Assembly: GCA_965197475.1 (NCBI GenBank)
Contig: CBDANF010000003.1
Coordinates: 576,001 to 640,000 of the forward strand
Length of the DNA stretch: 64,000 bases
Origin: Candidatus Poribacteria bacterium
GTDB lineage: Bacteria > Poribacteria > WGA-4E > WGA-3G
Reading direction: 5' to 3'
Shown: positions 44,935 through 49,371 of the stretch, one piece after another
How positions within the stretch are numbered: position 1 is the stretch's first letter
Layout of the letters: every line of letters begins with the position of its first letter
Position numbers and translations under genes: made by a program
Notes under the pieces: generated by a model
The model's input: the letters and a program-made list of their open reading frames with translations, nothing else
Databases searched by the model: none
Told to the model about the DNA's origin: nothing

Positions 44935-47169
44935 ATGAAAAAGATTTTATACGCAATCATAACAACACTGCTCATAACACTCATAACCACACCTAGCATC
45001 ACCGCCCAAGACCATACGGAATTGGGTCTACCCAAAGGTGCTATAGCACGGTTTGGGAAAGGGGGGAAATCGGGTGATATTGCGTATTCGCCAGATGGTG
45101 CCAAGTTCGCTGTGCCGTGCAAAATCGGCATTTGGATATACGATGCAGAAACAGGAGAAGAGCTTGACCTATACACTGAACATACGGATGCGGTTAGGAG
45201 TGTTGCTTTTAGTCCGGATGGAAACACAATCGTCAGTGGGAGTCATGACAAAACTGTTCGGTTGTGGAACGCAAATACGGGAGAACAACTACGCATACTT
45301 GAAGGTCATTGGAACTACGTTTATAGTGTTGCTTTTAGTCCGGATGGAAATACAATCGCAAGTGGGAGTTATGACAAAACCATCCGGTTGTGGAACGCAA
45401 ATACGGGAGAACAACTACGAACACTTGAGGGGCATCGGAGTTCCATTTTTAGTGTTGCTTTTAGTCCGGATGGAAACACAATCGCAAGTGGGAGTTATGA
45501 CAAAACCATCCGGTTGTGGAACGCAAATACGGGAGAACAACTCCAAACAATCAACACATCGTCCTTAGAGATTTCATTTAGTCCAGATTGGACTATGATA
45601 GCAAGTGCAGGTTTAGACTATTCTGTTCGGTTGTGGGACGCAAAAACGGGAGAACAACTACGAACACTTAAGGGGCATCAGGGTGGGATTTCAAGTATCG
45701 CCTTTAATCCTAAAAACAACATCATCGCAAGCGGGAGTTGGGATGGCATTTATCTGTGGGACGCAAAAACAGGGAAACATCTCCAAACACTTGAAGGGCA
45801 TAATGGTTGGACCAACACCTTAGCTTTTAGTCCGGATGGCAACACCCTCGTCAGTGGGAGTACGGATTCTACAATTCGCCTATGGGATGCAAACTCAAGG
45901 AAACATAAACGCACAATTGAAGGATATACGAATAGGTTCGCAGGTGTCGCTTTTAGTCCGGATGGTAGCATACTCGCAGGTGGCGGTTCAAGAGATATCC
46001 GATTATGGGACATAAAAACGGGTGAAAAACTCAAAACGCTTACCAAGACTGGAGGCTCGGTCTATGACTTGTCATTTAGTCCAGATGGCGATATGATCGC
46101 AAGTGTCGGTGATTCACCAGTCACCGTTCTGTTAGATGTAAACACCACAGAAGTTATCCATAGAATAAGCACGAATTGTAAATGGCTTAATTGTGTCGCA
46201 TTTAGTCCGGATGGCAAGTTAGTCGCAAGCGGTGGTTCAGGTGTATTCTCAGACCTCGCTATATGCAACGTAAGAACAGGGAAACTTCACCGTAGAATTT
46301 TGCAACATACGAGGTTCCTCAATAGTGTCGCGTTTAGTCCGGATAGCAAGACGATCGCATGTGGGAGTCCGGACAGAGTCATCAGGATATGGGATGTAAC
46401 ATCGAGGAAACTCCTTCACACATTTAAAGGACATACGGCTAATATCAGAAGTATCTCATTTAGCCCGGATGGTAACACGCTCGTAAGTGGCAGTGGGAAC
46501 GAAATTGATGGCGACTTCACCGTCAGGTTGTGGGATGTAAAATCCGGGAAACTTTTACACACCCTTCAGCGGCATACGAGTTACGTCAATAGTGTTGCTT
46601 TTAGCCCGGATGGCAACGTCATCGCAAGTGGAAGTAATGACACACACATTCGGTTGTGGGACGCAAACAAGGGGCTGCATCTACGCAAACTTGAGGGGCA
46701 TAAGGGACCCGTGCTCAGTATATCTTTCGGTAATGATAATCGCACGCTCGCAAGTGGGAGTTCTGACGGCACCGTGCTGGTCTGGGACTACAGATCCGGT
46801 GCTGATGGGATTGATGTGGGGGAGCCGTTTTCCGTTGAGGCACGTGGTAAGAAACTTGTCACACTCGGTCAGATAAAGCGTAACCAACTGTTCCAAAACT
46901 ATCCTAACCCCTTCAATCCTGAGACGTGGATTCCGTATCAATTGGCATCACCTGTGAATGTTAGTATCTCTATCTATACTGAAGATGGCAAGCTGATTCG
47001 GACGTTAGATTTAGGAGATAAGCCTATCGGCATCTATCAAGATCGTGACCGTGCGGCTTTTTGGGATGGTAGAAACGAGAATGGAGAAAAAATCGCCAGT
47101 GGCGTATACTTCTACACTCTCACCGCAGACGATTTCACTGCAACGCGCAAGATGTTGATACGGAAATAG
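44935..47169 (+). CDS. Secreted WD40-repeat protein with a C-terminal FlgD-Ig/sorting-type domain
   Basis: Many [19 protein letters not shown] repeats; QNYPNPFNPETWIPYQL...WDGRNE.GE...SGVYFY...TRKMLIRK. Confidence 0.92.
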   Translation: MKKILYAIITTLLITLITTPSITAQDHTELGLPKGAIARFGKGGKSGDIAYSPDGAKFAVPCKIGIWIYDAETGEELDLYTEHTDAVRSVAFSPDGNTIVSGSHDKTVRLWNANTGEQLRILEGHWNYVYSVAFSPDGNTIASGSYDKTIRLWNANTGEQLRTLEGHRSSIFSVAFSPDGNTIASGSYDKTIRLWNANTGEQLQTINTSSLEISFSPDWTMIASAGLDYSVRLWDAKTGEQLRTLKGHQGGISSIAFNPKNNIIASGSWDGIYLWDAKTGKHLQTLEGHNGWTNTLAFSPDGNTLVSGSTDSTIRLWDANSRKHKRTIEGYTNRFAGVAFSPDGSILAGGGSRDIRLWDIKTGEKLKTLTKTGGSVYDLSFSPDGDMIASVGDSPVTVLLDVNTTEVIHRISTNCKWLNCVAFSPDGKLVASGGSGVFSDLAICNVRTGKLHRRILQHTRFLNSVAFSPDSKTIACGSPDRVIRIWDVTSRKLLHTFKGHTANIRSISFSPDGNTLVSGSGNEIDGDFTVRLWDVKSGKLLHTLQRHTSYVNSVAFSPDGNVIASGSNDTHIRLWDANKGLHLRKLEGHKGPVLSISFGNDNRTLASGSSDGTVLVWDYRSGADGIDVGEPFSVEARGKKLVTLGQIKRNQLFQNYPNPFNPETWIPYQLASPVNVSISIYTEDGKLIRTLDLGDKPIGIYQDRDRAAFWDGRNENGEKIASGVYFYTLTADDFTATRKMLIRK

Positions 47170-47295
47170 TATCAAATGACCATAGGATAGCTGGAAGGCT
47201 GATGTTTATTGGCTTCCCAGCGATCGTTGATGAGTGGGTTGCGTTGGGATCGCGAGCATCCTCTTTGAGAAATGATGCGTTTAGCGATAAACGTG
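47169..47295 (-). ncRNA. Candidate structured ~125-nt RNA at the element end
   Basis: Downstream of a consensus promoter; four consecutive stems readable by eye (CGTTTA/TAAACG, GCATC/GATGC, GCGATC/GATCGC, CTGGGAAG/CCTTCCAG). Confidence 0.4.
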
Positions 47296-47300
47296 TCTAA

Positions 47301-47329
47301 AGTATAGCAAAACCAGTAGCGGTTGTCAA
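47301..47329 (-). promoter_or_regulatory. Outward-facing consensus sigma70 promoter inside the element
   Basis: Minus strand TTGACA-17bp-TATACT. Confidence 0.75.
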
Positions 47330-47396
47330 CCATATTTTCAAGGCACCTGCCCCGGTTTTGCGAAGTAAAGTTCGTCGGGAACATAGGATTAGGGTC

Positions 47397-48281
47397 TCAT
47401 TGGGCTTCTCCTTGGTGAGTGGCTTCATCGTTTGAGTCTGAATTGGCAAGGTCTGCATCTATGGCTTGGAGTTGGTGCTGCGGTATGAGGTCGAGATATT
47501 GAGAGATGACGCGTTTAGAAAGTCGTGTAATCTGTGAGATTTTATCAATATCTGCGGTTGCTTTCCGAACGACTTTGACGCTCTCATAATCGCGAATGTA
47601 TCGGTCAACTGCCTCCTTAGAGTGTTTGGTCTTTGCGGCAATCCTGGGGGTGAGATGTCCTTGAAGATAGAGGGTTATGATCTCTTTCTTATGGGTAATA
47701 GCCCCCGATAAGTCATGGATATTGCCACGGGTGGGCAAGAGTTCTCCAGTGGTTTTTTGCCATTCATTAACATAATCACAGACAACGGCATCGCAGACAT
47801 TGAGCAAAACTGCCAAGTCGAGTTGTGTCAATAATGCCCCTTGGTCATAAGCTTGATGACACCAGCGGACCAAGCGATTGATCCGCAATTGCCGGGAGGT
47901 GAAACCGTTGCGAAAGGATTCAATATCCTCTGCGGCGAGGTAAGTCAGGATGACGGGTTTCATGCGGGTTTTGACGATGGACTTTCCTCTTTCTGGATGC
48001 TCTTCAATAGGGACGGCCATCCAAACGAGTTGTCCATAACTCAAGAAACGCTCATCCGGGAGTTGATCGCCGGTGGCGAGTTTCTCCAAAGGAAGGGTAA
48101 TCACGAAATAGTCTTCAACGGTCTTAAGAATATCATCAACAATGGCGGTGGCAGTGACTTCGCCTTTGTCATAACCATAGTCATTGAGAAAGCGGTGAAT
48201 GAGCAACTGTCGTAGGGACTTATCGTTGATGCGTCTGAATTTCTTCTCGTTGATTTGCGTGCGGGTTAGAGGTTTGCTCAT
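47397..48281 (-). CDS. DUF1670-like protein B
   Basis: GQLVWMAV, QAYDQGALLTQLDLAVLL, PTRGNIHD.....THK, KHSKEAVDRY. Confidence 0.75.
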   Translation of the reverse strand: MSKPLTRTQINEKKFRRINDKSLRQLLIHRFLNDYGYDKGEVTATAIVDDILKTVEDYFVITLPLEKLATGDQLPDERFLSYGQLVWMAVPIEEHPERGKSIVKTRMKPVILTYLAAEDIESFRNGFTSRQLRINRLVRWCHQAYDQGALLTQLDLAVLLNVCDAVVCDYVNEWQKTTGELLPTRGNIHDLSGAITHKKEIITLYLQGHLTPRIAAKTKHSKEAVDRYIRDYESVKVVRKATADIDKISQITRLSKRVISQYLDLIPQHQLQAIDADLANSDSNDEATHQGEAQ

Positions 48282-49078
48282 GAGAGGTCCCCCTTTTTTG
48301 TGTCCTCAGGTTCTGGGTGAAGGAGTTGGGTCATGCGATCTGTGTGTTGGTATTCCTCATAGAGTGAGAGATACTCGCGGATCAACCGGTCAGATAGATG
48401 GGTGATCAGGCGTATCTGTGCGTTAGGAAAGCCTTGATGATGGAGCGTAGCGACTTGTGTAAAGTCTTTCAAGTAGCGGTAGACAGCTCGTTCGCTGTGG
48501 TTCGTCTTTTTCTCGATTTCGGTGAAGGTATAGGCTTTGAAATATAACTCCAGGACCTGGGTTTTATGAGAAGTGCCGGGGCCCATGTCGTGTTTCGTCC
48601 CGCGCGTCATAACGAAATACCCATCCTGCTTCAAGTGTCGAATGTCGCGTTTGACTGTAGCAGGACTGGTGGTTAATAATACAGCTAAATCCTCGTAGCT
48701 CAGTAAGGCATCTTGGTCATAAGCTTCTTGGGTCAATCGGAGGATCCGATGCCGTCTGAGTCCTGCGAGACCATAATTCGCTAAGACTTCAAGATCGGCG
48801 TTTGTGTCATTGAGAGTTAGCCGACAGGAAACTTTTTTCGCTAAAGCGATATGTTTACCTGCGGGTTCCTCTGCGGCGACTGCCTCGTAGCAGATTTGCC
48901 CTGATGTCAGGTGCACATCGGCGTGTTGTTCAAAGTAGGTGGAAATCTGTTTATAGTAGGCTTCAGCAACGAGAGGCATTAGATTAAAGTCTGCTGAAAT
49001 CTTCTGAATAATCGCGGCTCTGGCATTCTTGGATTCGAGCCGAGTGATACCGTAAGCGGTATCCTTCTTGCGGTTCAT
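48278..49078 (-). CDS. DUF1670-like protein A (ATGA-coupled to B)
   Basis: GQICYEAV, EAYDQDALLSYEDLAVLL, TRGTKHDMGPGTSHK, NHSERAVYRY; GGAGG RBS before ATG 49078. Confidence 0.75.
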   Translation of the reverse strand: MNRKKDTAYGITRLESKNARAAIIQKISADFNLMPLVAEAYYKQISTYFEQHADVHLTSGQICYEAVAAEEPAGKHIALAKKVSCRLTLNDTNADLEVLANYGLAGLRRHRILRLTQEAYDQDALLSYEDLAVLLTTSPATVKRDIRHLKQDGYFVMTRGTKHDMGPGTSHKTQVLELYFKAYTFTEIEKKTNHSERAVYRYLKDFTQVATLHHQGFPNAQIRLITHLSDRLIREYLSLYEEYQHTDRMTQLLHPEPEDTKKGDLS

Positions 49079-49371
49079 ATTGACCTCCATGAATAGATTA
49101 TCGGGGATCCGAGGACATCTACTCGTTAGTTTAACGAATACTAATAGTATAACTCATGGGGTCATTTGATACAAACTATAAATAGAGTGTATCTCATAGA
49201 TAGAATTGTGTTGTGCAAAGTACAGGTACTGCAGGAAATGTTAACATTTTCGAATTCTTCTAACCCCTTGCATTGATTTTTTCTCAGAATCATGTAACCA
49301 TTTCGCATCATACCCGCGTCATTATAAAATGATAGGACATTAAACAATCTAGCATTTTCTTGAGGTGTCTG

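Follow-up and report, generated by a model that had tools for sequence, protein, structure and literature searches.

A two-gene DUF1670 element inserted at the ends of sorting-domain genes in Candidatus Poribacteria: a candidate new family of insertion sequences

The stretch of DNA analysed here, referred to as the window, comprises 64,000 nucleotides of a Candidatus Poribacteria genome (assembly GCA_965197475.1, contig CBDANF010000003.1, positions 576,001 to 640,000 of the forward strand). The genome to which it belongs (G000) is assembled in three contigs with a total of 5.7 Mb. At the end of a gene for a large WD40-repeat protein the window harbours an element with two open reading frames (ORFs), A and B, both encoding proteins of the family DUF1670 (PF07900). 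A first-pass annotation, made from the letters alone, had proposed a candidate new kind of transposon, and this is borne out in so far as the element is mobile, holds two DUF1670 genes, and has neither a known transposase domain nor a target duplication. The features of the locus, in window coordinates, are as follows.

44935 to 47169, plus strand: target gene for a protein with WD40 repeats and, at its C-terminus, a sorting-type domain ending in ...TRKMLIRK; the last 6 nt come from the element
47164 to 49179, minus strand (gene direction): whole mobile unit, most likely span; 19 copies are 92–100% identical and diverge outside the ends
47164 to 47181, plus strand: left end, AAATA followed by the 13-bp inverted repeat GTATCAAATGACC (47169–47181), from junction alignments
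47190 to 47221, no strand assigned: imperfect inverted repeat of the non-coding left end, GCTGGAAG ... CTTCCCAGC; its GCTGG/CCAGC core is the one part retained in other genera
47301 to 47329, minus strand: putative near-consensus sigma-70 promoter downstream of ORF B, TTGACA-17-TATACT with TG, matching at 11 of 12 positions
47397 to 48281, minus strand: ORF B, DUF1670 paralogue (PF07900) of 294 amino acids, whose start overlaps the stop of ORF A (ATGA)
48278 to 49090, minus strand: ORF A, DUF1670 protein (PF07900) of 270 amino acids
49146 to 49174, minus strand: promoter-like TTGTAT-17-TATACT upstream of ORF A, its -35 overlapping the right inverted repeat; found with a regular expression and absent from the consensus scan
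49160 to 49179, plus strand: right end, inverted repeat GGTCATTTGATAC (49160–49172) followed by the terminal AAACTAT (49173–49179), from junction alignments
49180 to 49185, plus strand: displaced host Lys codon and stop (AAA TAG in the window), from the right-junction hexamers

An alignment of the 19 copies in the window genome gives a mobile unit of 2016 bp, AAATAGTATC...CAAACTAT, with 47164–49179 as the preferred span. Recurrence of one unit with constant ends at 19 places greatly exceeds what chance would produce. The first-pass annotation had drawn a unit of 2004 bp with 13-bp terminal inverted repeats. The repeats, at 47169–47181 and 49160–49172, are perfect and do bound 2004 bp, but the copies remain alike for 5 nt beyond the left repeat (AAATA) and for 7 nt beyond the right one (AAACTAT), and the tips outside the subterminal repeats are accordingly asymmetric. 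The right tip is invariant in all 19 copies and in other genera, with AAACTTT in a relative from a Bacteroidetes metagenome-assembled genome (MAG); it is thus the element's own end and not, as had been thought, a non-matching coupling sequence. At the other end the 15-mer TAGTATCAAATGACC is identical in nine aligned Poribacteria elements, in one Ignavibacterium MAG and in one Bacteroidetes MAG. The left junction reads AAATAG in every copy inspected, 19 of 19 in the window genome and 35 of 35 in five other genomes (54/54), whereas the right side past AAACTAT continues with AAG or AAA, then TAA, TAG or TGA, and then unrelated DNA. The hexamers at the 19 right junctions (AAGTAA 9, AAATAG 3, AAGTAG 3, AAATAA 2 and AAGTGA 2; AAG-type 14, AAA-type 5) match the codon use of unoccupied gene ends, and at the 21 sites listed for five genomes CTAT is followed by AAG in 15 cases, AAA in two and other bases in four. 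No target duplication was found at the 19 pairs of junctions, as the annotation had claimed from the one pair, and the ends show no subterminal hairpins, only the long-range inverted repeat. Also seen next to element ends, the window sequence at 49183–49215 to the right of the copy (TAG..TATC..ATAGATAG) resembles a decayed left end, and in genome G052 one copy adjoins a degenerate left end (also at the L094 right junction). Solo left-end pieces of 58–107 nt are frequent in other Poribacteria MAGs.

The target is highly specific. Seventeen of the 19 left flanks are the ends of genes whose products have a tail of the form ...(T)R(K/R)(M/L)-x-I-x-K, while two insertions lie outside sorting-domain genes. 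The element is found immediately 5' of an AAR-TAR hexamer that closes genes for proteins whose sorting-domain tail has the form ...(K/R)M-x-(I/L/V)-x-K, always in a single orientation relative to the target, with the element's genes convergent with the host gene. The AAA TAG at 47164–47169 supplies the final Lys codon and the stop to the host gene in place of its own hexamer, so that the host protein is unchanged. The last 100 residues of the target protein in the window match FlgD_ig with 37.1 bits, above the cut-off of 27, and CHU_C (26.3 bits) and Por_Secre_tail (25.2 bits) just below it. Altogether 44 sorting-domain gene ends were counted in the window genome, 17 of them occupied. In two other genera (G033 and G023) the element sits elsewhere, in the A-rich loop of a hairpin resembling repetitive extragenic palindromic (REP) sequences, with 12-nt stems and a GAAGAA-type loop. 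Exact empty copies of this hairpin number 72 and 42, respectively, and filled sites differ from these by the element alone, no base being duplicated or lost. Some of the hairpin copies are arranged in arrays about 190–350 bp apart (G033:C1, for example 1894819–1897594, and G023; loci L102–L117).

As a run of A residues is present in the target, the boundary can be drawn in two frames shifted by 3 nt, TAG...AAR (47167–49182, insertion 3' of AAA) or AAATAG...CTAT (47164–49179). The former was our earlier choice and was demoted after gene-end occupancy, an empty site in genome G108 and the bases following CTAT had been considered. Judged from these sequence comparisons, boundaries at 47164 and 49179, with insertion just before the last Lys codon of the host, are most likely. 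Gene ends with AAA are occupied in 17 of 27 cases and those with AAG in none of 17, while the right junctions, AAG 14 to AAA 5, resemble the unoccupied ends (17:10). The Lys codon and the stop codon of the right junction differ even among copies with 100% identity over about 2 kb. The empty sequence in G108, a related genome, ...CGG AAG TAG CGGTCAGG, matches the right flank of the copy at C3:3207172 with 98% identity, AAG included, and AAATAG is constant at the 35 left junctions elsewhere, against varied bases after CTAT. The search for further empty sites was less productive: for the right flank of the copy at C3:3522002 it returned five relatives with the downstream gene, none with a sorting-domain gene upstream, and for that of the copy at C3:2551633 no match. 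The site in G094, a genome of the same genus, that is orthologous to the window copy was discarded as an empty orthologue; it holds a 560-bp internally deleted derivative (L080:930–1497), flanked as in the window by this gene end and, downstream, by the sigma-factor gene.

The left junction of the window copy had been read as TTGATAC-GGAAATA-GTATCAA, that is, as inverted 7-bp arms around a 7-bp spacer with one arm supplied by the host. The letters are correct, but the significance given to the arms does not survive comparison of the copies: the host arm is perfect in one of 19 (mean 4.5 of 7 positions), it is explained by the Leu-Ile codons of the host gene at this position, and the hairpin targets do not have it. 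Comparison of the junction 7-mers thus left the spacer arms as a peculiarity of the window copy and AAACTAT as a constant.

Of the 19 copies, 14 have ORFs A and B at full length, and the others carry a fusion, truncations or a deletion. Beside these copies the window genome carries a 0.5-kb internally deleted derivative at C3:94058–94558. Deletion derivatives in the window genome, at the orthologous site in G094 and in public DNA runs retain some 30–150 nt on the left and some 40 nt on the right, which suggests that short ends are enough for the element to be moved in trans. The features by which an insertion sequence is recognized were all found, namely near-identical copies, defined ends, unrelated sites, empty sites and internally deleted derivatives, and we hold with confidence that this is a mobile element with these ends and this target. 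Two identical copies, G000:C3:845184–847208 and G000:C2:1160513–1162566, have at least 80 nt of right flank in common and unrelated left flanks, for which duplication, rearrangement between copies and an artificial join in the assembly are all conceivable. Stand-alone contigs of 2002–2021 bp encoding ORF B, one of them of exactly 2016 bp, occur in public assemblies (clusters P0159, P0186, P0195, P0204 and P0220); such contigs are as expected for a repeat cut at its ends by assemblers and do not by themselves point to circles.

The distribution of the family is wide and patchy. Matches to PF07900 were found in 46 of 176 genomes of the phylum, with counts that range from a single pair to at least 15 per genome and are often high. 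ORF B homologues with 67% and 61% identity are encoded in the Ignavibacterium MAG and the Bacteroidetes MAG, respectively, about 170 nt inside the identical TAGTATCAAATGACC end. The same 15-mer directly follows similar gene ends in KSB1, Cloacimonadota and Melioribacteraceae MAGs in which it is accompanied by no PF07900 match, and these sites are read as relics. Full elements are present in at least three bacterial phyla, and the family is also matched in Methanosarcina acetivorans; a tblastn search against plasmids gave no match. In a library clustered at 50% identity, 1252 representatives match ORF A at E≤0.001, and the 90% cluster of ORF B has 805 members. Between subfamilies the ratio of nonsynonymous to synonymous substitution rates (dN/dS) is 0.09–0.14 for ORF A and 0.03–0.08 for ORF B, with dS up to 0.45.

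Membership of both proteins in DUF1670, assigned in the first-pass annotation, was confirmed with the profile of PF07900 (ORF A 209.9 bits, E 4e-62; ORF B 208.3 bits, E 1.2e-61; cut-off 25), as was the ATGA coupling of two paralogues, which are 35% identical over 192 amino acids (E 1e-27). The real start of ORF A is likely to be the ATG at 49078, which would give 266 amino acids, because GGAGG precedes it at 49088–49084 and many homologues start at residue 5. Protein sources label the members "DUF1670 domain-containing protein" or "hypothetical protein", PF07900 has no function on record, and no paper in the library searched names DUF1670 or PF07900. The annotation had likewise found no DDE, HUH or serine recombinase motif, and in agreement with this no Pfam family of DDE, HUH, serine or tyrosine recombinases is matched by either protein at E≤1 (no PF00589 at that threshold, no PF01797, no PF00239, no DEDD/Transposase_20). 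Besides DUF1670, only helix-turn-helix (HTH) families appear, including a faint row for HTH_7, the DNA-binding part of serine recombinases, at E 0.13. A profile of 75 homologues retrieved HTH proteins only from the PDB sequences, NCBIfam and PHROGs gave weak HTH rows only, PADLOC gave none, and the protein Atlas returned HTH-type clusters only (score ≤0.80). No other conserved ORF was found on either strand, and no plus-strand ORF of at least 80 amino acids is common to all nine aligned elements. A 70-amino-acid ORF at 47172–47384 was rejected as a third gene because indels break it in other genera.

The protein motifs quoted in the annotation, LYLQG/LYFKA-x11-HS-x6-Y, TRG..HD and HK, are legible in the translations. 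The H-S-x6-Y stretch is covered by the matches to HTH_23/28/29, at residues 175–212 in ORF A and 198–234 in ORF B. An AlphaFold model of ORF A (75 homologues, mean predicted local distance difference test, pLDDT, 90.3) shows three N-terminal helices, a beta hairpin (65–72, 86–92) with a conserved tip, a long helix and a winged helix (about 105–168), followed by two HTH units (175–218 and 223–257). The same plan, in which DNA-binding modules follow a helical N-terminal domain with a beta-arm, is assigned to both proteins. The helix of Tyr240 in the third unit corresponds to that of Tyr206 in the second, and a PDB repeat protein aligns the two as tandem copies; this aromatic residue may correspond to the Trp of the common "(V/I)S..T(V/I).RW" HTH pattern. 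The best-conserved stretch of the protein lies between the winged helix and the second HTH, R163-G164-x3-D168-x-G170-x3-[S/T]174-H175-[K/R]176, with R163 in 100%, S/T174 in 100% (Ser in 56 and Thr in 19 of 75), H175 in 97% and K/R176 in 99% of the homologues. Further conserved are H198 (96%), D99 (93%), D134 (93%), and R118 and Q126 (within 93–97%). The stretch from R163 to [K/R]176 could be a DNA-contact wing or an active centre. Fused forms with two (about 500–545 amino acids) or three (about 930–950 amino acids) DUF1670 modules exist, which supports A and B acting as a joint unit, and an A-B heteromer is plausible; the predicted complex of ORF A with ORF B scored 0.23 against a mark of 0.32, a value that counts neither for nor against binding. 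All ten longer homologues that were scanned carry DUF1670 and HTH, one of them with a match to the EamA transporter, and no enzyme domain was found in these ten. Since threefold fusions exist, the non-coding left end of the element may be the relic of a third DUF1670 module. Within that end, 47265–47284 repeats the 3' end of ORF B (47499–47518) over 20 nt with 90% identity.

The non-coding left end also contains the best promoter-like site within 2.5 kb, at 47301–47329, which faces outward through the left end about 130 nt away and whose -10 and -35 blocks are kept in eight of nine aligned elements from other genomes; from its sequence it may well function as a promoter. The site at 49146–49174 is a possible promoter of ORF A. 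A structured RNA is not evident: Rfam searched with the element at E≤10 gave a chance miRNA row only, and RNAalifold on 15 left ends yielded eight pairs at -2.4 kcal/mol and no supported consensus fold, while the single-sequence fold of the left end has a z of -2.25.

From these observations a mechanism can be outlined. The A/B pair, probably as a heteromer, would bind the inverted repeats together with the target and link the two element ends, right and left (...ACTAT|AAATAG...), to the target site (nnn|AARTAR), with an overlap of at most the shared AA. The exchange would be conservative with a small stagger, or else a one-strand transfer completed by replication, and in a circle or tandem the outward promoter would drive ORFs A and B across the joined right-left junction. 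As the left junction recreates the target, new copies may land beside old ones. The limit on the overlap follows from the one-sidedness of the core. Joined ends and target have a 6-bp core in common, the polymorphic positions of which (3, 5 and 6 in the host hexamers) are element-derived at the left (54/54) and host-derived at the right (19/19 reconstructed sites), which argues that the overlap does not exceed the shared AA or that a single strand is exchanged. An overlap of 2 nt or less between the cuts in donor and target is, on these junction sequences, rather probable. That the DUF1670 proteins themselves perform the chemistry, and so represent a new recombinase class, is a tentative proposal to which we give slightly less than even weight, because the element appears autonomous across phyla, selection is strong, polar residues are invariant and no partner domain is present. 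Marginally more tentative is its stricter form, by which DUF1670 proteins would add a sixth chemistry to those of the prokaryotic transposases and site-specific recombinases, with no relationship to the DDE, DEDD, HUH, serine or tyrosine enzymes. With the same reserve, two or three DUF1670 modules, built of HTH-type units only, would then recognize about 20 bp of target and insert the 2-kb unit scarlessly with an overlap of at most 2 nt, and the loop R163-G-x3-D-x-G-x3-[S/T]-H-[K/R] together with H198 would be the candidate active centre. Taken as a whole, with ends, target, DUF1670 pair and catalytic step as set out above, an active, autonomous insertion sequence of an undescribed family is in our view evenly balanced.

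Several observations weigh against this interpretation. Foldseek with the ORF A model found nothing in the PDB at E≤0.001, its top rows being SelB winged helices, MntR/DtxR and ScpB, and the highest Z in a VIA-align comparison with 48,161 chains was 6.8, all rows being DNA-binding domains of winged-helix type (NiaR, BirA, LexA, Z-alpha) or HTH of TrpR/Mor/Mu-C type. The N-terminal 125 residues alone (pLDDT 92.5) had no Foldseek match at E≤0.001 and a best VIA Z of 4.5; weak rows resembling HU/IHF (Foldseek E 0.2 or worse, TM score ≤0.45; VIA IHF alpha Z 4.3 over 37 residues) make such a likeness of the modelled domain a lead at most. Tyr206 and Tyr240 lie inside HTH units of the model. The non-coding ends are 97–100% identical between subfamilies whose ORFs have a dS of 0.2–0.45, for which gene conversion, a constraint of unknown nature or densely packed binding sites are possible reasons. 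Beside the empty sites, of which the hairpins and the one in G108 were found, the annotation had looked to circles as signs of movement: no circle junction and no precise-excision joint was present in the Logan contigs of four runs (two of unstated kind taken as DNA, two RNA libraries), contigs that cannot show rare forms. The element sequence is present in the contigs of both RNA libraries, a presence from which transcription is not concluded. As to the boundaries, the left flank of the G108 empty site is not orthologous to that of the copy at C3:3207172, and the choice between the two frames rests on indirect arguments.

A chemistry supplied by the host would agree with much of this. The DUF1670 pair would then be a specificity and architecture module that binds ends and target and recruits a host enzyme for cutting and joining. 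Candidates would be the one Xer-like tyrosine recombinase, a topoisomerase, or the machinery of replication and repair; elements that exploit XerCD offer a precedent. All modelled parts resemble DNA-binding domains and no enzyme fold was found, the genome has a single Phage_integrase match, and the one-sided junctions fit a single strand exchange resolved by replication. Given the presence of the element in at least three bacterial phyla and the family match in Methanosarcina acetivorans, however, the partner would have to be nearly universal. The target is not the chromosome dimer-resolution site and there are 44 candidate gene ends in one genome, and no co-varying host gene was found, Y1_Tnp being the one examined across the phylum. 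As all folds are DNA-binding, we keep recruitment, with any of these partners, as the leading rival, somewhat less likely than chemistry by the DUF1670 proteins themselves. The tyrosine-recombinase mechanism put forward in the first-pass annotation, in which A and B form a heteromeric, very divergent R-H-H-Y enzyme that acts on inverted arms with a 6–8-bp spacer in the manner of Tn916/Tn554, fares considerably worse. It could draw on the conservation of R163, H175, H198 and Y206, on the 13-bp inverted repeats, and on the lack of duplication, the asymmetric ends and the specific target that PMC10214605 describes for Tn554 and strand-biased circularizing elements (SEs). Against it, PF00589 is not matched at E≤1, no tyrosine-recombinase chain is among the 50 rows listed by either structure search of the ORF A model, the fold comparison which the annotation had suggested thus bringing up winged-helix and HTH domains only among the matches listed, and Y206 and Y240 occupy matching helices of two HTH units. 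In joined ends the repeats would lie 12 bp apart, a single copy of the 19 has a perfect host arm, and a 6–8-nt overlap is disfavoured because it would leave both variants at both junctions; AAATAG at all left junctions against host variants at the right speaks against a 6–8-nt heteroduplex and a 6-bp carry-over of donor flank alike, and would allow 2 nt or less. With models that are DNA-binding only, we consider this mechanism quite improbable.

Movement as single-stranded DNA by an unlinked HUH enzyme (Y1, of IS200/IS605 or RAYT type), with the DUF1670 genes as cargo or regulators, would explain insertion by a short fixed motif, the lack of duplication, the asymmetric ends and the use of a hairpin loop in two genera. 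Y1_Tnp is matched twice in the window genome (C3:1868465 and C3:968177) and occurs in 155 of the 176 phylum genomes, which also makes it too common to discriminate. The strong purifying selection on both ORFs in all subfamilies is at odds with cargo, as are, with HUH transposition, the ends devoid of subterminal hairpins and the lack of an evident replication-strand bias (9 co-oriented versus 7 among the 16 copies on contig C3, in a three-contig assembly with weak GC skew). G087, which is 94% complete, carries a DUF1670 pair and no Y1_Tnp match, and we judge the explanation improbable. The bridge RNA of IS110 and the end-derived RNAs of TnpB elements raise the thought that the transcript of the outward promoter, some 130 nt of left end plus flank, might be a guide RNA that chooses the target. 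The promoter is near consensus, conserved and faces the end, and conservation in the non-coding left end exceeds that of synonymous sites, but no consensus structure and no Rfam match was obtained as described above and no known RNA-guided enzyme is encoded. Three identical copies have left flanks that do not resemble one another, and one of the three is not at a sorting-domain gene at all; a guide templated by the flank was dropped because of such unlike flanks, and a guide RNA in general is most improbable. Least probable of all is a domesticated regulatory cassette of two DNA-binding proteins and an antisense promoter, spread over sorting-domain genes by gene conversion. The occupied gene ends (17 of 44), the invariable convergence with the host gene that makes the promoter antisense, and the resemblance of the proteins to transcription factors would be in its favour, yet gene conversion cannot place an element next to unrelated right flanks. 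Nor would a cassette be expected in the two insertions outside such genes or in the hairpin loops of other genera, and the patchy distribution (0 to at least 15 matches per genome) and the deletion derivatives also disagree with it.

Set beside known systems, the DUF1670 element shares traits with several and belongs to none. Serine recombinases use a 2-nt stagger, and a crossover in a 2-nt core as in IS607 would fit its junctions. According to PMC6188088, IS607 has no target duplication, is about 2 kb long and has two genes, all as here, and lacks terminal inverted repeats, in contrast to the perfect 13-bp repeats of the DUF1670 element. IS607 furthermore encodes a serine recombinase, whereas the DUF1670 element has no PF00239 match and no conserved catalytic Ser (position 174 being Ser or Thr), and its target is highly specific. 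IS110/IS1111 elements insert site-specifically and without duplication, use a 2-nt core, can target REP-type sequences and carry a structured non-coding end and, in the IS1111 group, subterminal repeats. The DUF1670 element would resemble them in such traits and differs in having no DEDD/Transposase_20 and no supported RNA structure; PF01548 is not matched in the window genome. The likeness to Tn554 and SEs, as described in PMC10214605, extends to target specificity, absence of duplication, imperfect terminal inverted repeats, several proteins and strand-biased, one-sided junctions. According to the same source, SEs have genes for two tyrosine recombinases of RHRY type, and 6 bp from the left flank of the donor are copied to the new right junction. 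The DUF1670 element has no RHRY gene; its right junction is the target's own hexamer and its left is always AAATAG, and there is no sign of the 6-bp carry-over, since AAGTAA, AAGTAG or AAGTGA stands at 14 of 19 right junctions and AAG at no left junction. With IS200/IS605, going by the general rules of that group, it shares a short fixed motif, absence of duplication, asymmetric ends and a usable hairpin loop, and differs from it in having no Y1 gene, no subterminal hairpins and no evident replication-strand bias. The element lacks the defining protein feature of each of these four groups, and we file it as a new, undescribed insertion-sequence family and a clear member of PF07900.

The prokaryotic insertion sequences that have been well studied are, to our knowledge, all moved by enzymes of a handful of classes. 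One that multiplies and spreads across phyla, with both genes under strong selection and DNA-binding modules only, would, if truly such, mean either a new recombinase chemistry or the first insertion-sequence family to borrow a host enzyme beyond the dimer-resolution site. In either case the element provides a first functional context for DUF1670, and scarless insertion with fixed orientation at an approximately 20-bp site, with the host codon and stop restored, is of interest for programmable or site-specific insertion tools.

The neighbours of the window copy, at 44935–47169 and 49360–52158, both encode large WD40-repeat proteins. In the right one (49360–52158) the WD40 repeats are fused to an N-terminus of extracytoplasmic function (ECF)-type sigma-70, and it has many paralogues in the genus. 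To the right of the copy at C3:3207172 another repeat of about 700 bp (L002:3757–4467) was noted, with 10–24 matches in G099, G103 and G093 at 70–84% identity, which is probably a different insertion sequence.

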